From Acidimicrobiia bacterium (GTDB lineage Bacteria > Actinomycetota > Acidimicrobiia > IMCC26256 > JAOSJL01), in the NCBI GenBank assembly GCA_041394025.1, contig JAWKJA010000002.1:1272021-1336020 (forward strand): a DNA stretch of 64,000 nt, in the 5' to 3' direction. Positions 35,568 through 51,272 of the stretch are shown here, piece by piece. A program made the translations under genes and the position numbers. Positions within the stretch are counted from its first letter, which is position 1; each line of letters opens with the position of its first letter. The notes beneath the pieces are model-generated. The model made no database searches. It saw nothing but the letters and a program-made list of their open reading frames with translations, and was not told where the DNA came from.

Positions 35568-36260
35568 ATGTTGGCTGTCGCACCGCGGCGTTACGGTGGA
35601 GGCATGGCGAGCACGCTCGATGTGAACCGCTTGAAGAACGCTGCCACCGAATTCGCCGAGTCACTTCGTTCCAGGCCGATCCCGGAGCTCTATGGAACGA
35701 CGGACGGCAAAGCCTTGGGGACCTGGGTCGAGGCGAGCTTCAATGAATTCCTCGCAGAGCGGTACGCGTACGAGCCGGGGAACCCAGCTCGTGGAATCGA
35801 CTTCCCAGAGCTCGAAGTCGATCTGAAGGCGACATTCATCAAACAGCCGCAGTCGTCGTGTCCGTTTCGCGACGCGGCACAGAAGATCTTCGGCCTGGGC
35901 TACGACCTCCTCGTTTTCGTGTACGAGAAGACGGACACGCACGAAACCCAATCCGCGGCGATCGATGTGCGCCACGCACTGTTCATCGATCGATCGAGGA
36001 CCGGCGACTATCAGACGACCAGAGGAATCCTCGAGATCCTTGACCGCGACGGGAACCTCGACGACCTCCTCGCATTCATGGAGGACCGGAATCTGCCGGT
36101 TGACGAGACCGGTCGGACCGTACTGGCCGAACGAGTTCTCAACGACCCCCCGACACAGGGTTACCTCACGATCAGCAACGCGCTTCAGTGGCGGCTCCAG
36201 TATGGCCACGCGATCACGAACGCAGGAGAGGACAACGGTGTCGAGGACCTTGTCTCGTAA
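35568..36260 (+). CDS. putative type II restriction endonuclease (PD-(D/E)XK-like)
   Basis: 230-aa ORF immediately upstream of, and overlapping, a DNA methyltransferase. The segment ARGIDFPELEVDLKATF gives a D...(D/E)xK pattern. Alternative start at ATG 35604, preceded by ggtggagg. Confidence 0.55.
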   Translation: MLAVAPRRYGGGMASTLDVNRLKNAATEFAESLRSRPIPELYGTTDGKALGTWVEASFNEFLAERYAYEPGNPARGIDFPELEVDLKATFIKQPQSSCPFRDAAQKIFGLGYDLLVFVYEKTDTHETQSAAIDVRHALFIDRSRTGDYQTTRGILEILDRDGNLDDLLAFMEDRNLPVDETGRTVLAERVLNDPPTQGYLTISNALQWRLQYGHAITNAGEDNGVEDLVS

Positions 36261-37851
36261 GGAGCTCGGCGACTTTCAGACGCCTCGGGAACTCGCAGTC
36301 GAGTGCACTCGGGTAGTGGCGGGGATTCAGCCTGGAACACGCCGAGTGCTGGAACCAACGTGCGGTGAAGGGTCCTTCCTGCTCGCTGCGGCCTCCGTCC
36401 TCGAGGCGCCCTTGGAGATGCTCGGAGTCGAGATACAGCCCACGCGTGCCGATATTGCCCGCCGCCTCCTCGGAGGGTTCGACCTCACGGGAACGACGTG
36501 GCGAGTCGAGGTCGGCGATATCTTCCGCCACGATCTGAACACGCTCCAGTGGGAGACGGACGGTCCACTGCTCGTCCTGGGGAATCCGCCGTGGGTCACG
36601 TTGTCAGACCTCGGCGCCATGGACTCGAACCAGATACCCGAACGTACGAACGTGCGCTCGGTACGGGGTATCGATGCACTCACCGGAGAGTCGAACTTCG
36701 ATGTCGCCGAGTATATCTGGATGCGACTACTGACAGAGTTGCGTGGAGCGGAGCCGACTGTCGCACTCTTGTGTAAGACCTCCGTCGCGCGTCGAGTCCT
36801 CACGCTGGTAGCTCACCTGGAGCTGCACCTGGCTGAGTCGTTCCTGTGGCGTATCGACGCAAGAAAGCACTTTGGCGTGGCGGTCGACGCATGTTTCTTC
36901 GCGGTTCGGCTCGACGGAAGGAGCCACAATTACCGGTGCCAGGTTTTTGACTCACTCGCTGCGAACTCTCCAGTGGTCACAATGGGCTTGGTGAACGGCG
37001 CTCTCGTTGCCGACGTCGATGCTCACACGGCGTCGCGGCAATTCGACGGGTCCTCGCCTGTCGAGTGGCGGCAAGGTGTCAAGCACGACGTGGCCGCTGT
37101 CATGGAACTCCACCCCGCCGACGGGGGCAAGCTCCACAACGCACTCGGCGAGACAGTCGAGGTCGAAGACGACTGGGTGTATCCACTCCTCAAGGGTTCG
37201 GACGTCAACGCTGGTCGCAGCCCAGCACGCCGGGTCATCGTGACCCAACGAACATTGGCCGATGACACGAAAGGCCTCCGCTATGCAGCGCCGAGGCTCT
37301 GGGCATACCTGCAGCGCCACACCGCACGTTTCGCTGGCCGCAGGTCATCGATCTACCGGAACCGCGCAATGTTCTCCCTCTTCGGTATCGGCCCCTACAC
37401 CTTCGCACCTTGGAAGGTCGCAGTGTCGGGCCTCCACAAGGTCCCGAGGTTCCAACTCGTGGGTCCCTGTGACAGTCGGCCTGTCTTACTCGACGACACC
37501 TCGTACTTCCTTCCGTGCGACTCGGCGGCCGAGGCGGCCGTTCTTCTCAGCGCGCTGAGGTCCGAGTCCGCAACTCTCCTGCTCACGTCGTTGCTCTTCG
37601 TCGATGCCAAGCGACCCGTCACGAAGAAGCTGCTACAGCGAATCGACCTCGCTGCCGTTCTACGCCACGACCGTGCCGACATCGAAGTGGACGCACAGGC
37701 CACGCTCAAGACGGTCGGTACAAACGGCGATGCCACGACAGTCGCTCAGACAGTCCGCCAGCTCCTGCAGCAGTGGGACGGGGCCGAGGCGACGCCGTCA
37801 CTTTTCGACGACACCGACTTCACCGCACGCGACACCACCACGACCATCTGA
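36238..37851 (+). CDS. N6-adenine DNA methyltransferase, gamma class (M.TaqI/Eco57I-like, NPPW)
   Basis: Motif X LGDFQTPREL, motif I VLEPTCGEGSFL, motif IV LVLGNPPWV, and a long C-terminal target-recognition region. The GTG at 36238 is preceded by aggagagga. An alternative ATG lies at 36202. The gene overlaps the REase 3-prime end. Confidence 0.82.
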   Translation: MSRTLSRKELGDFQTPRELAVECTRVVAGIQPGTRRVLEPTCGEGSFLLAAASVLEAPLEMLGVEIQPTRADIARRLLGGFDLTGTTWRVEVGDIFRHDLNTLQWETDGPLLVLGNPPWVTLSDLGAMDSNQIPERTNVRSVRGIDALTGESNFDVAEYIWMRLLTELRGAEPTVALLCKTSVARRVLTLVAHLELHLAESFLWRIDARKHFGVAVDACFFAVRLDGRSHNYRCQVFDSLAANSPVVTMGLVNGALVADVDAHTASRQFDGSSPVEWRQGVKHDVAAVMELHPADGGKLHNALGETVEVEDDWVYPLLKGSDVNAGRSPARRVIVTQRTLADDTKGLRYAAPRLWAYLQRHTARFAGRRSSIYRNRAMFSLFGIGPYTFAPWKVAVSGLHKVPRFQLVGPCDSRPVLLDDTSYFLPCDSAAEAAVLLSALRSESATLLLTSLLFVDAKRPVTKKLLQRIDLAAVLRHDRADIEVDAQATLKTVGTNGDATTVAQTVRQLLQQWDGAEATPSLFDDTDFTARDTTTTI

Positions 37852-37870
37852 CCTCCGTCATGAACGCGAC

Positions 37871-37889
37871 CTGATCCAGAGGGGATCAG
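37871..37889 (+). terminator. hairpin downstream of the methyltransferase gene
   Basis: ctgatcc-agagg-ggatcag (7-bp stem, 5-nt loop) starts 20 nt after the stop codon. There is no U-tract, so function is uncertain. Confidence 0.25.
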
Positions 37890-37964
37890 CGGCGGGAGGG
37901 CATCTCGTTTGGGGGCCTCGGCGACCGGCCACTCTGGCCTGCCGCGATCGTCGATACTGTCGGT

Positions 37965-38813
37965 GTGCCGGAACGCCGCTTTCTCGTCGCCAAGAACCCG
38001 GATCTCGACTCGTCGTTGCCGTTCCTGGTCCGGCTCCCGATCGGCCCGCACGGGTTGGTGCTGAAGGCCCGGGAGACGTGGCCGCGGACGTCGAAGGTCT
38101 ACTGCCACCGGGCGGCAGAGGGCGAGTGGCACGACAGCCTCGAGATCCTCGAAGACGTCGGTGTGCGATCATGCGTGCGCAAGGGCGTCGCCATCGACCT
38201 GGTGCTCGACCGTGGCAAGGAACACCGGAGCCAGCTCGTGTTCACCCGGTTGAAGGGTGGCCGGGAGGCCATCTTCTGGCAGAGTGCGAAGACCACCCGG
38301 AAGGCCCGCCCGTCGGTGAGGGTTCCGGGTCGGCGTGCCTCGAACCTGCCGAACTTCACCATCATCGTCGACACCCGGGAGCGGTATCCGTACAAGTTCG
38401 CCAAGCAACGGGTTGCCGCGGAGCGGGGCAAGCTCCCGGTCGGTGACTACGGCGTCCTCCACGACGATGAGGTCGTCGCGCTGGTCGAGCGCAAGAGCAT
38501 GGCGGACATCTCGAAAGGACTCACCGACGGCGGGTTCGCGTATCAGCTGGCCGATCTGGCGACCCATTCGCGAGCGGCCGTCGTGGTCGAGGAACGCTAC
38601 TCCAGCCTGTTCAAGAACGAACACGTCAGAGGCGGCTGGCTCGCCGATCTCCTCGCGCAGCTCCAGGTCCGCTACCCCACCGTGCCGATCGTCTTCTGCG
38701 AGACCCGCCCGCTCGCCGAGGAGTGGACGTTCCGCTTCCTGGGAGCCGCCCTCGCCCACCACCTCGATGAGCCCGAGGGTCCGACTGCCCCCCGGATCTG
38801 GCGCGAAACGTAG
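37965..38813 (+). CDS. ERCC4 (XPF/Mus81-type) nuclease domain protein with an uncharacterised N-terminal domain of about 125 aa
   Basis: 282 aa. The C-terminal half carries IIVDTRERYPYKF ... LPVGDYGV ... VALVERKSMADISKG, which is the GDxn-ERKxxxD ERCC4 signature. I cannot place the N-terminal half (FLVAKNPDLDSSLPFLVRLPIGPHGLVLKARETWPRTSKVYCH...) in any family. Confidence 0.75.
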   Translation: MPERRFLVAKNPDLDSSLPFLVRLPIGPHGLVLKARETWPRTSKVYCHRAAEGEWHDSLEILEDVGVRSCVRKGVAIDLVLDRGKEHRSQLVFTRLKGGREAIFWQSAKTTRKARPSVRVPGRRASNLPNFTIIVDTRERYPYKFAKQRVAAERGKLPVGDYGVLHDDEVVALVERKSMADISKGLTDGGFAYQLADLATHSRAAVVVEERYSSLFKNEHVRGGWLADLLAQLQVRYPTVPIVFCETRPLAEEWTFRFLGAALAHHLDEPEGPTAPRIWRET

Positions 38814-44943: not shown

Positions 44944-46061
<1,118 letters not shown>

Positions 46062-46117
46062 GAGTCCCCCTGCTCCTCCGGAGGGGCGAGCATACGTTCG
46101 AGCGAGCGGTACGTGCC

Positions 46118-46624
46118 TCAGTCTCCCTCGCCCGGCTCCCCTCGCAGGTGTGCGGAAAAGATCACGAGGTCGGTCGGTTCCCCCGAGACGTAGACCTCGT
46201 TCCTGAGCTGGCCGCGCCTTCTCCAGATTCCCGACACGTCGCGCGGGGCGTGCGCCTCGGGAACCTTGCCGATGAGCGTCCGGAGTTCGAGGAGATCCGA
46301 GGCGACCCGTGTGAGCTCGTCGAGCAGCGCCCCACCGATCCCCTTGCCACGCTCCGCCTGAGACACGGCGACGAACGGCTCGCCGACGAGTTCGTAGTTG
46401 TACGAGGACGTGAGTCGGCCGAAACCCACCGGCATGTCGTCGTCACCGAGCGTCGCGACGTAGAGAGCGAGGCATCCGGTCCAGAGGAGCGTGAGGAACT
46501 CGGCGTCGCTCGGGACCCGCCGCCGGCAGAAGGAGAACGGGAAGACGTCGTCCTCCAGGACGATGTCGTGGATTCCCTCGTAGTGGTGCTCGGCGGCCGG
46601 CCCGATCTGCACGTCGGCTGTCAT
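46118..46624 (-). CDS. GNAT-family N-acyltransferase (second of two)
   Basis: Starts MTADVQIGPAAEHH within track ORF 46118..46879. Acyl-CoA pocket-like QAERGKGIGGALLDEL. ATGA overlap with the upstream GNAT stop. Confidence 0.75.
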   Translation of the reverse strand: MTADVQIGPAAEHHYEGIHDIVLEDDVFPFSFCRRRVPSDAEFLTLLWTGCLALYVATLGDDDMPVGFGRLTSSYNYELVGEPFVAVSQAERGKGIGGALLDELTRVASDLLELRTLIGKVPEAHAPRDVSGIWRRRGQLRNEVYVSGEPTDLVIFSAHLRGEPGEGD

Positions 46625-47196
46625 GGATCCCCCGGTCGCCCAACGCCGTCCTTCCACGCCTGCCAATGCTCGCGAGTGGTCGCCACGAGAAGCAGGTCGT
46701 CCCAGGTGCCGTCGGAATAGACCATCGACGGCACCTCGGCCTCCACCTCGAACAGGCGCCCAGCTCCGCGTGCCGCCTTGCCGGCGTGCGTCGCACGCTC
46801 GACGACGCCCTGGACCTTGTTGACGGGCCACGTTCGAAAGGCCCAGTTGATGGCGAGCCCCGTTCCCTCCATCGGCCATCCCGCATTGCGGACCTCGGGT
46901 AGGTGGGCGACGGCGTAGAACACCCGACGGTCTGCCAGGTTGAGGCCGAGGAAGTTGACGATTCCCACGTCGCGGTCACCTCTGTTGGAACAGACGACGA
47001 ACGCAGCGTCGGTCGCACCGATCATGATGTCGTACGCGTCCTGACGCGATGGGGTTCGTGGCTGGTAGCGCCACTGACGAGCGACCACCGGGTCGGATGT
47101 GAGCGTGCGGGCCAACTCGCGATCATCCTCGCAGGCGGGTCGCAGATGGGCGACACGTCCTCGGAGGTCGACCGGGTCGGATTCGCTTTCTGTCAC
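46621..47196 (-). CDS. GNAT-family N-acyltransferase (RimJ/RimL-like, first of two)
   Basis: About 191 aa from the GTG at 47196 (GTGA overlap with the ACP stop). ...VAHLRPACEDDRELARTLTSDPVVARQW...GWPMEGTGLAINWAF... pattern of the Acetyltransf_3-like type. Confidence 0.7.
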   Translation of the reverse strand: MTESESDPVDLRGRVAHLRPACEDDRELARTLTSDPVVARQWRYQPRTPSRQDAYDIMIGATDAAFVVCSNRGDRDVGIVNFLGLNLADRRVFYAVAHLPEVRNAGWPMEGTGLAINWAFRTWPVNKVQGVVERATHAGKAARGAGRLFEVEAEVPSMVYSDGTWDDLLLVATTREHWQAWKDGVGRPGDP

Positions 47197-47414
47197 GACA
47201 CCACGATCGCCCGGACGGCCGACTCCACCGTGTCGTCGGGGCCGAGGCTGTCGGCTCTCTCCATGTCGACGTCGAGGCCGAGTTCGTCTTCGATCGCGAA
47301 CATCCACTCCACGACGGTGAGGGAGTCGATCTCGCCCAGGGGTGTCGCGGGCTTCAGGTCTTCGATCCCCGTCAGCATCGACAGAAGTCCGACGCTCTGT
47401 TCGAGTGTGCTCAT
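47193..47414 (-). CDS. discrete acyl carrier protein
   Basis: 73 aa, MSTLEQSVGLLSMLTGIEDLKPATPLGEIDSLTVVEWMFAIEDELG, with a DSL phosphopantetheine-attachment motif (Ser31 by my count). An alternative GTG at 47480 overlaps the KS stop. Confidence 0.75.
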   Translation of the reverse strand: MSTLEQSVGLLSMLTGIEDLKPATPLGEIDSLTVVEWMFAIEDELGLDVDMERADSLGPDDTVESAVRAIVVS

Positions 47415-47472
47415 TCGAATGCTCCTGTCTTCGCCTACCGGGCCGCTCTTTGTGTCGGTGCTTCCACGGGTG

Positions 47473-49659
47473 TCACTCACGCTTTCCGAGTCGGTAGCCG
47501 GCGACCGATCCGAGCTCGTCGGCCGAGAGGCACACGACGTCCTCGGAACCGCCGGCGGAGTAGCTCGCCATGACGGGAATCAGGGGAGCCATTGCCCCGT
47601 ACGCGGACGGAACCGGGACGGTGTCGAACGCCGTCTCCTGCCATTCGTGTGTGTACACGGTGGCGGCCGTTGCCGGCTCCAGGGCCCCGGCGATCCCTTC
47701 GTAGGGCGTGGGGTCCGAGGTGGGTTTCCAGCCGTCGCGGTCGAAACAGCTGCGCATCGCAATCCGCTTCAGGAGCGGGCCGTCGCTGCGGGCATCGTTC
47801 GTGAGAACGACCGCAGCGACGCCGTGGAAGCCGACATCAGGGAAACGTCGTGCGTCGGGCTTCGCCGGGTCGTCGTGGAGGTACCCGGCATCCATGTCGG
47901 CTCCGGCAACGACCATGCCGTCGACCACGCCGGTGGCCACGAGGTGGCGGGCGTACTCGAGCGCCCCGATCGCACCGTTGCGCCCGGCCGTGAACGTGAG
48001 CAGCGGGCCCGTCAGGCCGCAGGCCTGGGCAGCGGTTCCCGCGGCCGCCGTGACGACGAGCCTCGGGAAGATCGCCGGGTTCGGTGTACGTCCCCGCGTG
48101 ATCGCCCTGTGGAGCTTCTCGTAGGAATCGACGGGACCCTTCTCCGTGGCTATCGCCAGACCCCATCCCGTCGCCGCCGGAGAGATCTCGGTCCCGTCGA
48201 GGGCGTCCGCCGCCTCCAGGGATCCCGACACCGCCGTCAGGACCCGGCGACTCAACTGGTCGAGCCGGATCCACTCGTGGGGCGGCACGAGGGGGTTCTC
48301 GTCAACGTCGCCCACGCCCACGATCGGGGGCCACGCTTCGAGGAGAGCGCCGGGGAGAAGGTCGTGGGCCACACTGACGGATGCTGACGCACCCGCGACC
48401 GAGACGCGCTCCTCGGGTTCGGCACTCGCCGACCGGCGATCGACATCCGCCTCGGGACCCAGACACACCAGCGCTGAGTCGTGGCCACCGAACGCCTGGT
48501 TGATGGTGACACCGGCGACACGGTCAGGAGGCAGCTTCGACTCCCCGTCGAGCACGAGTCGGCCGTGACCGACGAGCAGGTCGTCGCGCTGACGCTCGTG
48601 TGGTCGCGCCGTGGCTGTCGGCGGCGCGACCCCGTCGCCGAGTGCGCGCAGGGTGACGATCAGCTCGAGCGCACCCGCTGCGCCGAGACCGTGGCCTGTC
48701 GCACCTTTGATCCCCGATGCGAGAGCTCCCGACGGGAGCACTCGGCTCAACAGGTCGAACTCGGCCGCATCGTTCAGCGCCGTGCCGGTTCCGTGGACGT
48801 TCACGTAGCCGATGTCGGAGTCGGAGACGCCCGATGCACTCAGTGCCTGCCGGATGGCGCGTTCGACACCGGCACCTGTGGGCTCGGGCGCCGTCGGATG
48901 GTGGGCGTCGCTCGTGAGGGCGTCGCCGACGAGGAAGCCGCGACCTCGTGCCTGGTCGGGTAGAGCGGAGACGGGAGCGAGGATCAGGGCGCCTGCTCCT
49001 TCTCCCAGAGTGAGACCGTCCGACGCGTCGAAGGGCGCGGTGGGCTCCGACGCGTAGGCACCGAGCATCTCGAATCCCCACGCCGAAAAGGGCGTGTACT
49101 CCTCGGCGCCGCAGACGATGGCGGCCGGGACCTGACCCGACCGGATGAGCGACGCGGCGACCGACGTCGCCGTGGCTCCCGACGAGCACGCAGTGTTCAC
49201 GGTGAGACACGGCCCCTCGATGTCGAAGGCCGCGCCGATCGAGGTGGCGATGCCGTGGAACAGGTCGACGCCCTCGATGGACAGCTGCGGGTCGAAGACG
49301 TCGCCTCCGGTGAGGTCCCACTCGGTGCGGACTCCCGCGCTGGTTCCGACCACGACCGCCGCTCGGCGGAAATCGTCCACCCACGACGCTGCCCCGCTAC
49401 GGGGTCGGGTACGCGCTGCGGCGTCCACGAAGGCCTCACCGACCGAGCGGCAGGCCATGGCAACGACGCGCGACTCGATGGCGCCGGGGGACCGTGCGTC
49501 GGCGTCGAGTGGAGGAACACGCGCCACGTGCCGGTCGCCATCCCATGAAACCGCTGTGCGTCCCTCAGCGAGGGCCGACCATGACGCGTCGGCCGTCGGA
49601 CCGACGGGCGTGACGGCCCCGTATCCGAGCACGGCCAAAGGCGCGACGCGTCGCGTCAT
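47473..49659 (-). CDS. fused beta-ketoacyl synthase / Cys-less KS-like (chain-length-factor-like) protein
   Basis: 728 aa. The N-half has TVNTACSSG (Cys about 158), SDAHHPTAP, VNVHGTGT and GATGHGLGAAG. The C-half has the aligned LTFTAGRNGAIGALEYARHLV with no Cys, and VVAGADM. Confidence 0.8.
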   Translation of the reverse strand: MTRRVAPLAVLGYGAVTPVGPTADASWSALAEGRTAVSWDGDRHVARVPPLDADARSPGAIESRVVAMACRSVGEAFVDAAARTRPRSGAASWVDDFRRAAVVVGTSAGVRTEWDLTGGDVFDPQLSIEGVDLFHGIATSIGAAFDIEGPCLTVNTACSSGATATSVAASLIRSGQVPAAIVCGAEEYTPFSAWGFEMLGAYASEPTAPFDASDGLTLGEGAGALILAPVSALPDQARGRGFLVGDALTSDAHHPTAPEPTGAGVERAIRQALSASGVSDSDIGYVNVHGTGTALNDAAEFDLLSRVLPSGALASGIKGATGHGLGAAGALELIVTLRALGDGVAPPTATARPHERQRDDLLVGHGRLVLDGESKLPPDRVAGVTINQAFGGHDSALVCLGPEADVDRRSASAEPEERVSVAGASASVSVAHDLLPGALLEAWPPIVGVGDVDENPLVPPHEWIRLDQLSRRVLTAVSGSLEAADALDGTEISPAATGWGLAIATEKGPVDSYEKLHRAITRGRTPNPAIFPRLVVTAAAGTAAQACGLTGPLLTFTAGRNGAIGALEYARHLVATGVVDGMVVAGADMDAGYLHDDPAKPDARRFPDVGFHGVAAVVLTNDARSDGPLLKRIAMRSCFDRDGWKPTSDPTPYEGIAGALEPATAATVYTHEWQETAFDTVPVPSAYGAMAPLIPVMASYSAGGSEDVVCLSADELGSVAGYRLGKRE

Positions 49660-49718
49660 CAGGGCGCGCTATTCGTGGAAGCCGCCGACGCCTCCGGGGA
49701 AATCAGGGACTTCCCTTC

Positions 49719-49916
49719 TCAGAGGATCTTGCACTGCCACACGCCGTTGAACTCGTCGGTGCAGTAGAGCTCGCAGCCCGAGGCGAGCACCGCGATACCG
49801 ACGGTGGCGGCGGCGAGCGTGGCGCGGTTCCTGAAGCGTCGACGCCGGGTCAGAGCCTGATCGTCGCCGGTACCGGTCGAGAACCTGCCCTCGGTGGTCT
49901 TCGTTCCCTGTGTCAC
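49719..49916 (-). CDS. small predicted twin-arginine lipoprotein / exported Cys-rich peptide (65-aa precursor, 18-aa mature part)
   Basis: The GTG at 49916 is preceded by a G-run. TRRRRFRNRATLAAATVGIAVLASGC matches an RRxF Tat motif plus h-region plus lipobox. The remainder is CELYCTDEFNGVWQCKIL. Third-position GC is high. The longer track start at 50000 falls inside the predicted promoter. Confidence 0.5.
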   Translation of the reverse strand: MTQGTKTTEGRFSTGTGDDQALTRRRRFRNRATLAAATVGIAVLASGCELYCTDEFNGVWQCKIL

Positions 49917-49981
49917 GTCGTGACCCCCCGCGCCGTCAACCGTACGGTTCCGACGCTGCTTTGCGTGTTGGACGGATTCGG

Positions 49982-50010
49982 ACTCTAGACACCACACCAC
50001 GCGCTGTCAA
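49982..50010 (-). promoter_or_regulatory. near-consensus sigma-70-type promoter for the peptide/KS/ACP/GNAT operon
   Basis: Minus strand reads TTGACA (50010..50005), a 17-nt spacer, then TAGAGT (49987..49982). It lies in a locally AT-richer intergenic stretch. Confidence 0.55.
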
Positions 50011-50096
50011 CCCTTTGACGCTCATAGAGAGGTTCTGTCCGGATTATGCGGAAAGGCCGTGCTGTACGGGTTCGGGCCACGGTCCCACGGCCCACC

Positions 50097-51272
50097 TCAG
50101 GCGAGCAGCTCCCCGGCGATGATCCCCTTGCGCACCTCGGTGGTGCCGGCGCCGATCTCGAGCAGCTTCGTGGCCCGGAACAGCCGGTTCACCTCGGTCT
50201 CCCAGATGTAACCGTTGCCACCGTGCACCTGCACCGCGTTGTCGAGCACCTTGTTGCACATGTCGGCGCAGTACATCACCGACGCCGCCGTGCGGGCGTG
50301 GATCTCGCCGTGGCCTGCGTCGGTGGGACCGATGCCGTCGCACTCGGCGAGCACCTGCCAGCAGAACGTCTTCATGGTCTCGACCCAGACGTACATGTCG
50401 GCCAGGCGCGACTGCACCATCTGGAAACTGCCGATGGGCTGGCCGAACTGCTCGCGCGATCCGGCGTAGTCCACCGACAGCTCGAGGGCACGTTCGGCGA
50501 TTCCGACGTTGATGGGGGCGATCATGGCGCGCTCCAGATCGAGGCCGCTCATCACCACCCGGTGCCCCTGGTCGACGGTGCCGACCACGTTCTCCACCGG
50601 GACGACCATGTCGTCGAACACGAGCTCCGCGGTCTGGCTGCCCCGAAAGCCCATCTTCTCGAGCTTCTGGGCCACCGTGAAGCCCGGGGTGTCGGCCTCG
50701 ACGACGAACGCCGTGATGCCCTTCGACCCCGAATCGGGTTGCGTCTTGGCGTAGAGGAGACAGATGTCGGCCACGGGTCCGTTCGTGATGAACAGCTTCG
50801 AGCCGTTGATCACGAAGGTGTCGCCGTCGCGCACCGCTCGCGTACGCATCGAGCCCAGGGCATCGGATCCGGCGCCCGGCTCGGTCAGGCCGAGACAGCC
50901 GACGAGCTCGCCGGAGCACAGGCCGGGAAGGTACTTCTCCTTGACCTGCTCGCTCGCGTTGGCCGCGATGTTGTTGGCGCACAGGTTGTCGTGCGCGACC
51001 CAGCTCAGCCCGAACGCATGGTTCCAGCGCGAGAACGCCTGGAGCACCAGGCCCGACTCGAGCATCCCCATCCCCGCTCCGCCGTAGCGCTCCGGGATCG
51101 TGGCCCCCAGGAAGCCCTGCTTCCCGAGCCGCTCGAAGATGCCCGTGGGCCACCACTCGTCGTTGTCCATGCGCTCGGCGAGCGGGTAGAGCTCGGCGCG
51201 CGCGAAGCGGTCGGCCTCGTCGAGGAGGGCGGACTGCTCGTCGGTGAGGGCGAAGCGGCTGGTGCCGGCCAT
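50097..51272 (-). CDS. acyl-CoA dehydrogenase (isovaleryl-CoA dehydrogenase-like)
   Basis: 391 aa, ...GLTEPGAGSDA..., with C-terminal ...RLFRATKLLEIGAGTTEVRKGIIAGELL. Context of carboxylase and hydratase genes. Confidence 0.88.
   Translation of the reverse strand: MAGTSRFALTDEQSALLDEADRFARAELYPLAERMDNDEWWPTGIFERLGKQGFLGATIPERYGGAGMGMLESGLVLQAFSRWNHAFGLSWVAHDNLCANNIAANASEQVKEKYLPGLCSGELVGCLGLTEPGAGSDALGSMRTRAVRDGDTFVINGSKLFITNGPVADICLLYAKTQPDSGSKGITAFVVEADTPGFTVAQKLEKMGFRGSQTAELVFDDMVVPVENVVGTVDQGHRVVMSGLDLERAMIAPINVGIAERALELSVDYAGSREQFGQPIGSFQMVQSRLADMYVWVETMKTFCWQVLAECDGIGPTDAGHGEIHARTAASVMYCADMCNKVLDNAVQVHGGNGYIWETEVNRLFRATKLLEIGAGTTEVRKGIIAGELLA

Follow-up and report, generated by a model that had tools for sequence, protein, structure and literature searches.

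The window analysed here, a stretch of 64,000 nucleotides from an Acidimicrobiia bacterium, carries on its minus strand a five-gene operon that encodes a 65-aa peptide, a 728-aa protein in which a ketosynthase (KS) is fused to a chain-length factor (CLF), a 73-aa acyl carrier protein (ACP), and two GCN5-related N-acetyltransferases (GNAT1 and GNAT2). We read the operon as a minimal cassette resembling a type II polyketide synthase (PKS), in which a short β-ketoacyl or polyketide chain would be built on the ACP and then released by GNAT1 onto an amine; this reading is tentative and stands somewhat short of an even chance. The product of the operon, whose chemistry we infer, is probably a small acylated amine. 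The cassette is very rare and uncharacterised, it is made of familiar parts, and two of its five genes are without comparative support. Its features are as follows.

47473..49659, minus strand: KS–CLF fusion, 728 aa, a single open reading frame (ORF)
48445..49659, minus strand: KS half, residues 1-405, a FabF-like condensing domain (Pfam, NCBIfam, alignment, PDB)
49186..49188, minus strand: codon of the active-site Cys158 (TVNTACSSG), invariant in the family alignment
47473..48417, minus strand: CLF-like half, residues 415-728 plus stop, thiolase fold (hhalign, AlphaFold2 model)
47193..47414, minus strand: discrete ACP, 73 aa, with Ser31 in GEIDSLTVVEW (Pfam PP-binding)
46621..47196, minus strand: GNAT1, 191 aa, Acetyltransf_3 (Pfam), its start overlapping the ACP stop
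46118..46624, minus strand: GNAT2, 168 aa, Acetyltransf_1 (Pfam), its start overlapping the GNAT1 stop
49719..49916, minus strand: orphan peptide, 65 aa, with a GTG start at 49916 behind a GGGGGG Shine-Dalgarno sequence
49982..50010, minus strand: promoter TTGACA-17-TAGAGT, near-consensus sigma-70/HrdB-type, with 10/12 matches

The operon is real and intact, with one strong promoter ahead of all five genes. A first-pass annotation of this DNA had described five co-directional genes behind a TTGACA-17-TAGAGT promoter, and we found them on the minus strand in the order peptide, KS–CLF fusion, ACP, GNAT1, and GNAT2; the promoter is the sole sigma-70-like site in 45900..50300, where shuffled sequences give an expectation of 0.2. 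An AGGAG Shine-Dalgarno sequence is located 8 nt 5' of the ACP gene, and the start/stop overlaps claimed earlier can both be read in the sequence, as GTGA between the ACP stop and the GNAT1 start and as ATGA between the GNAT1 stop and the GNAT2 start. Such 4-nt overlaps, taken by themselves, suggest stoichiometric co-translation of the ACP, GNAT1, and GNAT2. All five ORFs are intact, and the operon was present in four independent samples at 99.8-99.9% identity, with a frameshift, nonsense, or other disabling change in 0/4; the population variants, 4 to 8 per sample, are too sparse for a measurement of selection. A hidden Markov model (HMM) search of the five proteins against Pfam returned the ketoacyl-synt N and C domains, PP-binding, Acetyltransf_3, and Acetyltransf_1, and nothing on the peptide. 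In addition, an Rfam scan of 45900..50300 gave no match at E<=0.1, and PADLOC matched no defence system.

The fusion is a covalent KS–CLF pseudo-dimer, in which a FabF-type ketosynthase with its full catalytic set is joined to a thiolase-fold partner that is catalytically dead. Pfam places the ketoacyl-synt N and C domains in residues 7-349, and the KS half matches FabF structures in the PDB with an E of 1e-35. In an alignment of 18 fused relatives, C158, H289, T291, T293, K318, H323, and F390 are invariant; we take C158, H289, and H323 to be the FabF-type Cys-His-His triad, K318 to be the catalytic Lys, HGTGT to be the malonyl-binding motif, and F390 to be the gate Phe. The triad residues are located in TACSS (Cys158), VNVHGTGT (His289), and GHGLGAAG (His323). 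Among the motifs first proposed as the Cys-His-His set of the N-half, those of Cys158 and His289 stand, whereas DAHHPTAP is conserved but the second catalytic His is H323.

The two halves of the fusion match each other in a profile comparison (hhalign 99.85%, E 1.5e-30, 295 columns), in which Cys158 pairs with an Arg in TFTAGRNGA and both catalytic His residues are replaced. The C-half was therefore correctly described as having no nucleophile, and no intact catalytic Cys was found there. At the position of the Cys, the window has Arg, its three nearest relatives have Gln, Glu, or Arg, and more distant ones have His or Gly. Aromatic type II PKSs have a conserved Gln where their CLF aligns with the KS Cys; the C-half of the fusion has Arg instead, and it is also shorter than in more distant fused relatives. 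An AlphaFold2 model from the family alignment reached a predicted TM-score (pTM) of 0.86 and a mean predicted local distance difference test score (pLDDT) of 74.7, with a disordered stretch at 637-679 in the C-half. The best Foldseek match of the model in the PDB is 6RIW, the KS–CLF didomain of PfaC (TMq 0.70, E 2e-32), which covers both halves, while FabF and type II KS structures match one half only. The hhalign result and the 6RIW match over both halves bear out the earlier description of a 728-aa fused KS/CLF-like protein with two thiolase-fold halves.

The fusion has close company in few genomes. In a search of 5.8e9 proteins, its closest non-self relatives were P0002, P0003, and P0004 at 36-41% identity; a one-genome-per-species scan gave nothing nearer than 34-36% identity, and a metagenome scan with the C-half profile gave one locus, with the same protein as P0004. 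The fusion subclade was found in four lineages only, and our comparison covered all four: the window, P0002 (L001/L087), P0003 (L085), and P0004 (L002-4/L089). An all-against-all comparison of the ORFs at the four loci gave, as the only families in common, KS–CLF in 4/4, ACP in 4/4, a GNAT1-type protein in 3/4, and a further protein, X, in 2/4. The ACP adjoining the fusion in 4/4 lineages belongs to one subfamily with the pattern DSL..EW.F.IE-E; that of the window is a 73-aa ACP with a DSL motif, as first reported, a Pfam PP-binding match, and the phosphopantetheine Ser31. Protein X, of ~235 aa, is a paralogue of GNAT1 (hhalign 97.2%, E 3.6e-11) with an N-terminal extension of 60-70 aa and no P-loop glycine. 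The genes are arranged X–GNAT–ACP–KS/CLF in L001 and L085 and KS/CLF–ACP–GNAT1–GNAT2 in the window. Two GNAT-fold genes overlap by 4 nt in 3/3 GNAT-bearing lineages, and the partner of GNAT1 is X in two of the GNAT1-bearing lineages and GNAT2 in the window only.

GNAT1-type genes were found solely beside this ACP/KS–CLF subclade. A word-index search with the GNAT1/X profile returned the known members and one weak RimJ-like match, and tblastn and custom HMMs of GNAT1, GNAT2, the ACP, and the peptide, run on 80 distant fused KS–CLF loci, gave nothing beyond L001 and L085. By sequence comparison, the conserved unit is the KS–CLF plus the ACP, usually with a GNAT1-type protein paired to a second GNAT-fold protein. 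The KS–CLF, the ACP, and one GNAT are syntenic in distant lineages; the five genes do not form one conserved module, as had been supposed, because neither the peptide nor GNAT2 was found outside this species and the second GNAT is X in two lineages.

The other cassette loci differ in their accompanying genes. In the P0003 lineage, an F420-dependent oxidoreductase of the luciferase-like monooxygenase (LLM) class lies directly after the KS-CLF (L085:4134-5144). The P0003 lineage (LLM-class) and the P0004 lineage (an aldo-keto reductase) differ in their redox accessories, a hint that tailoring of the ACP-bound keto product is not the same in the two. The P0004 locus (L089:1891-4059, equivalent to L002:2035-5481) also encodes a 131-aa Cys-rich protein whose signal is of the twin-arginine type (…FRRRGAMAAIGALVMGIAVAAGS…), together with a MauE-family membrane protein, a thioredoxin-like protein with CxxC, and an extracytoplasmic-function (ECF) sigma/anti-sigma-like pair. 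After the window, this makes two cassette loci that encode a small, exported, Cys-rich protein, but the P0004 protein is not homologous to the peptide in the window. At L087:6958-9862 (equivalent to L001:573-3477), three secreted/lipobox proteins of 464, 263, and 215 aa, all without a Pfam match, are encoded directly upstream of X–GNAT–ACP–KS/CLF in the same orientation.

A profile built from GNAT1, the GNAT1 orthologues, and X aligns from end to end with structures of SpeG/diamine N-acetyltransferases (E 1e-17); its matches to RimL/RimJ-type enzymes are weaker. FeeM, SbzI, and the GNAT-like decarboxylases of CurA and GphF are not among its PDB matches at E<=1, whereas SpeG/RimL-type N-acetyltransferases are; the link of the GNATs to CurA-type decarboxylases or FeeM, drawn in the first-pass annotation, has no specific support. 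GNAT1 scores 22.5 bits against the NCBIfam SpeG model, whose cut-off is 218; judging from these profiles, GNAT1 is not a SpeG orthologue but a distant SpeG/RimL-type relative at the level of fold and superfamily only. The SpeG P-loop xGKGxA aligns to RNAGWP (RxxGxP) in GNAT1 and to HSTGWP and AGPGVS in its orthologues. In our own reading of the alignment, the motif-B Tyr of SpeG, which we take to be its general acid, aligns to Gly in GNAT1 and its orthologues. GNAT2 has the canonical P-loop RGKGIG, a textbook motif that suggests acyl-CoA as its donor. Its NCBIfam matches are weak and PAT/ArsN-like, a word-index search of 5.8e9 proteins returned only GNAT2 itself, and no specific kinship was detected with GNAT1, X, or the 686-aa GNAT fusion described below. 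A match of either GNAT to well-characterised, unrelated acetyltransferases had been raised as a concern; neither has one at the family level, in view of the SpeG score of GNAT1 and the lack of GNAT2 homologues. The discrete carrier-protein-dependent GNATs on record, GdvG, FeeM, and SbzI, are N-acyltransferases whose P-loops are often altered (PMC11685415; bioRxiv 10.1101/2023.10.25.564083), and the replacement of Q/RxxGxG/A in the P-loop characterises such enzymes according to the SbzI study (PMC11685415).

No acyltransferase (AT), ketoreductase (KR), dehydratase (DH), enoyl reductase (ER), or thioesterase (TE) gene was found within ~10 kb either side of the operon, the rest of the window having been read as ORF lists, and the first-pass claim that these genes are missing is borne out over those flanks. 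In the proposed mechanism, a phosphopantetheinyl transferase of the host would activate the ACP and the FabD of the host would load it with malonyl, the usual arrangement among type II PKSs. By condensation, the KS–CLF would then join a short acyl starter to one malonyl unit or a few, and the product would stay on the ACP as a β-ketoacyl or short poly-β-keto thioester because the locus has no reductive enzymes (KR, DH, or ER). GNAT1 would take the acyl group from the ACP arm and form an amide on a polyamine-like small molecule or on a peptide amino group, and it may do so in a heteromer with the other GNAT-fold protein, with which it is co-translated. GNAT2 would most likely be an acyl-CoA-dependent accessory, serving in N-acetylation or tailoring, in self-protection, or as a structural partner. 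The exported 65-aa peptide would be a lineage-specific passenger, co-transcribed but outside the conserved machinery.

Several observations favour this mechanism. The GNAT1 profile reaches amine N-acyltransferases only (SpeG, RimL, and RimJ) and no GNAT-like decarboxylases of PKSs. The KS triad is invariant in 18 family members and the C-half is stripped of it, with a PfaC-like fold overall. Furthermore, KS–CLF, ACP, and GNAT1 are shared across lineages, with intact ORFs and paired GNAT genes that overlap by 4 nt. GdvG, FeeM, and SbzI provide a precedent, and the low FabF and AcpP scores given below speak against a housekeeping role. Other observations weigh on the opposite side. The P-loop of GNAT1 is only mildly altered (RxxGxP, compared with Q/RxxGxG/A), which makes its ACP dependence putative, and with the loss of the SpeG general-acid Tyr the enzyme could be catalytically unusual or inactive. 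The AlphaFold2 model of GNAT1 has a pLDDT of 54.9, too low for use. The lineage of P0004 (L002/L089) combines KS–CLF and ACP with an aldo-keto reductase whose gene overlaps the KS–CLF stop and has no GNAT, so amide release is not universal, and the comparative sample is tiny, with four lineages.

The same features bear on two other roles for the GNATs. In one, they are ordinary acetyl-CoA-dependent acetyltransferases, which would acetylate or detoxify a product that contains an amine or an unrelated substrate, and the KS–CLF/ACP product is released in some other way. The canonical P-loop and the weak PAT/ArsN-like matches of GNAT2, the SpeG-like character of GNAT1, and the P0004 lineage, which does without a GNAT, all agree with such a role; against it stand the restriction of GNAT1-type genes to this ACP/KS–CLF subclade, the GTGA overlap that joins GNAT1 to the ACP gene, and the SpeG catalytic Tyr, which GNAT1 has not kept. 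We regard this explanation as unlikely, although it deserves some weight. In the other, one or both GNATs act at the start of the pathway, like those of CurA/GphF, by decarboxylating malonyl-ACP or by loading a CoA-borne starter onto the ACP, with hydrolytic or spontaneous release. The GNAT would thereby do the priming, a task beyond the variable CLF residue. That residue is not the conserved Gln but Arg in the window, with Gln, Glu, or Arg in the other three lineages. Neither an AT nor a ketosynthase III (KSIII) gene is nearby, GNAT2 keeps its CoA-type P-loop, and the adjoining acyl-CoA dehydrogenase and carboxylase cluster could furnish branched short acyl-CoAs. Priming is nevertheless rather improbable in our view: the GNAT1 profile shows clear similarity to amine N-acetyltransferases and none to CurA/GphF at E<=1, and known GNAT-like decarboxylases are domains within type I loading modules, not discrete proteins (PMC11685415).

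The 65-aa peptide raises a further question, which depends on where it starts. The mechanical ORF of 93 aa would open inside the promoter, and the GC content at third codon positions (GC3) is 0.86 in the 65-aa part compared with 0.68 in the upstream extension; from this contrast and the position of the longer ORF, the GTG at 49916 is the realistic start. The public annotation of the source contig likewise carries the 65-aa version. The peptide has a long charged n-region with RRRRF, an h-region rich in Ala, Thr, and Gly, and a lipobox LASG|C; the predicted mature peptide is the 18-mer CELYCTDEFNGVWQCKIL, with three Cys residues. The first-pass description of a twin-arginine (Tat)-lipobox mini-peptide agrees with the sequence in that TVGIAVLASGC matches a PROSITE-style lipobox pattern and the twin arginine lies within RRRRF, but the full consensus S/T-R-R-x-F-L-K is matched in part only, and the signal is at best a putative one. 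An exhaustive HMMER search of 1.84e9 representative proteins returned no homologue besides the peptide itself, and the all-against-all ORF comparison did not find it at the other three cassette loci (L001/L087, L085, and L002).

The peptide could nevertheless be the substrate, in a ribosomal peptide/polyketide hybrid whose 65-aa precursor is acylated in the cytoplasm by an ACP-dependent GNAT, for example at Lys63, and is then exported and processed at the lipobox, in parallel with the logic of goadvionins, lipolanthines, selidamides, and lipoavitides. One operon behind one promoter does hold a small peptide, a KS, an ACP, and a GNAT, and Tat-type export can in principle carry a pre-modified substrate. 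GNATs that add ACP- or CoA-borne acyl groups to ribosomally made, post-translationally modified peptides (RiPPs) are established (bioRxiv 10.1101/2023.10.25.564083). We consider acylation of the peptide very unlikely here: the peptide is without homologues and missing from the other three loci, the locus has no recognition element and, within ~10 kb, neither a RiPP maturase nor a leader protease, the N-terminal region resembles an ordinary signal/lipobox sequence instead of a RiPP leader, and the α-amine of the mature Cys would be exposed only after export. A fuller version of this idea, to which we give only a slender chance, is a new ribosomal lipopeptide, in which short-polyketide acylation in the cytoplasm by an ACP-dependent GNAT pair, Tat-like export, and further lipidation and cleavage at the lipobox would yield a doubly lipidated, disulfide-containing 18-mer at the cell surface.

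We likewise give little credence to the idea that the operon is what is left of a larger cluster, acquired horizontally and now in decay, and that it yields no product. The GC3 of KS–CLF (0.81) and GNAT1 (0.77) is below that of the flanking genes (0.88-0.94), the L087 block that includes the cassette is flanked by IS110 and rve transposases, and the locus has no tailoring genes. The lowered GC3 and the transposase-flanked L087 cassette are compatible with horizontal acquisition. Decay is opposed by five intact ORFs with conserved catalytic residues, the near-consensus promoter, a compact trio retained across lineages that are only ~40% identical, and the lack of disabling variants in all four samples. 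Finally, the idea that the KS–CLF and ACP are the housekeeping FabF and AcpP of the organism is scarcely credible and effectively refuted, since the resemblance of the N-half to FabF is set against scores far under the NCBIfam equivalog cut-offs (183 bits against 493.75 for FabF, 20.3 against 70.45 for AcpP), a KS fused to a dead partner domain, and a subclade confined to four lineages out of 5.8e9 proteins. The same scores uphold the earlier statement that this is neither a normal fatty acid synthase (FAS) II locus nor a canonical type II PKS, and the best NCBIfam KS models for the fusion (PRK09185, FabF, and AmcF) all fall under their cut-offs.

Comparisons with known systems indicate that the architecture of the fusion is nearest to the PfaC didomain, and that the logic of the cassette is nearest to a type II PKS KS/CLF combined with carrier-protein-dependent GNAT release, as in GdvG, FeeM, and SbzI; the cassette lacks the defining features for membership in each of the families compared. 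In the case of PfaC, from polyunsaturated fatty acid (PUFA) synthase, an active KS is followed by an inactive CLF on one chain, and to our knowledge 6RIW is the only solved structure with this arrangement. However, PfaC belongs to a multi-domain megasynthase that has DH domains, PfaA/B/D partners, and tandem ACPs, whereas the fusion is a free-standing 728-aa protein in a small operon, 15% identical to PfaC and with a shortened C-half, and its neighbours are an acyl-CoA dehydrogenase/carboxylase cluster and a sugar ABC transporter. The KSα/KSβ(CLF) pairs of type II PKSs, such as those of actinorhodin (1TQY), ishigamide (Iga11/12, 6KXD), and cispentacin (AmcF/AmcG), resemble the fusion in their Cys-His-His KS, nucleophile-less partner, and discrete ACP, and in both the malonyl units presumably come from FAS. 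Both 1TQY and 6KXD are among the fold matches of the fusion model, and NCBIfam AmcF matches the N-half with an E of 7e-49 and a score of 167 against a cut-off of 325. In contrast to these systems, the subunits in the window are fused, the CLF Gln is not conserved, and KR, DH, cyclase, and aromatase are lacking, with no KR, cyclase, or aromatase gene within ~10 kb. In PigJ/RedX of prodiginine biosynthesis, an active and an inactive KS-like domain also share one chain, but the domain order is reversed (the active N-half aligns to PigJ 492-706 of 759), the pathway context is different, and the NCBIfam PigJ model gives the fusion an E of 7.5e-16 and a score of 58 against a cut-off of 900.

Carrier-protein-dependent discrete GNAT acyltransferases such as GdvG/AprG, FeeM, SbzI, and MbtK resemble GNAT1 in having a gene beside a dedicated carrier protein; the mild departure of the GNAT1 P-loop from Q/RxxGxG/A may or may not be of their kind. 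The adjacency of a GNAT1-type gene to the ACP gene is conserved in three lineages, and GNAT1 is also translationally coupled to the ACP. Unlike FeeM and SbzI, to which it has no similarity in the PDB at E<=1, GNAT1 is of the SpeG/RimL type (Acetyltransf_3), and its use of ACP is putative. The CurA/GphF loading decarboxylases are absent from the PDB matches of the GNAT1 profile at E<=1, and the GNATs in the window are encoded by discrete genes, not within a type I module. The clusters of RiPP hybrid lipopeptides (goadvionins, lipolanthines, selidamides, and lipoavitides) likewise hold a small peptide, a condensing enzyme, and a GNAT in one locus, but no maturase is encoded within ~10 kb of the operon, and the signal/lipobox-like peptide is not co-conserved with the cassette.

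Fused KS–CLF proteins at a greater distance (~30-35% identity) occur commonly in Streptomyces, Kitasatospora, Nocardia, Arthrobacter, Leifsonia, Cutibacterium porci, Solirubrobacterales, Paenibacillus, and others. One group is located within highly-reducing type II PKS-like clusters with extra KS, FabA-like DH, KR, AT, and KSIII genes. A second group, at no fewer than 14 loci in at least 14 genomes, encodes in this conserved order an ornithine-cyclodeaminase (OCD)-like protein, a short-chain dehydrogenase/reductase (SDR), an ACP, a FabA-like protein, a protein of 686 aa whose GNAT domain is N-terminal and whose large C-terminal part is of no assigned family, a GcvT-like protein, the fused KS–CLF, and a major facilitator superfamily (MFS) protein. 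This OCD/GcvT cluster occupies L046:4095-15719 (Nocardiopsis rhodophaea); it also occurs at L018, L024, L007, L028, L030, L032, L042, L044, L050, L055, L079, L041, and L048, and its hosts are Actinomycetota and Paenibacillus/Bacillus. Like the window, it brings together a fused KS–CLF (30-33% identical to that of the window), an ACP, and a GNAT-domain protein; unlike the window, its GNAT is of another lineage, with no specific similarity to GNAT1 or GNAT2, it has KR and DH genes, and the C-half is full-length. In terms of predicted gene content, the theme of fused KS–CLF plus ACP plus GNAT is a recurrent one, with GNATs of different lineages. A literature search on the OCD/GcvT/KS cluster found nothing, and one on "KS-CLF fusion/didomain" found PUFA synthase papers only; the broader family, seen in dozens of genomes from actinobacteria, Solirubrobacterales, Paenibacillus, and other groups, seems not to have been studied.

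If the proposed mechanism is true, the cassette would be the smallest known "PKS plus release" unit, with a fused KS–CLF, an ACP, and a GNAT in place of the thioesterase. It would extend ACP-dependent GNAT chemistry to the SpeG/RimL branch and offer a compact, clonable set of ~3.9 kb with which to make N-(β-ketoacyl) amides or amides of short polyketides. Being free-standing, the KS–CLF fusion would also be a useful model of the chain length set by a CLF, without the problem of expressing a heterodimer, and the locus in the window is an entry point to the broader fused KS–CLF family.

The genes upstream of the operon encode an acyl-CoA dehydrogenase, a TetR regulator, a carboxyltransferase, a biotin carboxylase, an enoyl-CoA hydratase, and a carbonic anhydrase. 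This set resembles a cluster for leucine or branched-acyl catabolism by predicted function; none of its members passes an equivalog cut-off. Downstream are a MalK-type ABC ATPase, two permeases, a solute-binding protein, and GH4/GH1 glycosidases. The gap between GNAT2 and the MalK-type ATPase (46062-46117) is 56 nt, and no terminator-like site was found in it; the sugar-uptake genes (ATPase, two permeases, and binding protein) may be read through from the strong promoter of the operon. Outside these flanks the window is core chromosome, with proBA, obg, mreBCD-pbp2-rodA, ndk, valS, clpX, clpP, and tig at 4845-29050. Of 15 billion proteins, none clusters with its ClpX, ClpP, or MreB at >=90% identity, so the host lineage, with its high-GC genome (~68%), is poorly sampled. 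At 35965-38813 lie a 628-aa protein that has an N6 DNA methylase domain and an unusually low GC3 of 0.73 and, after it, a 282-aa protein with an ERCC4-nuclease domain, a pair that may be a small restriction/defence or mobile insertion in the core chromosome.

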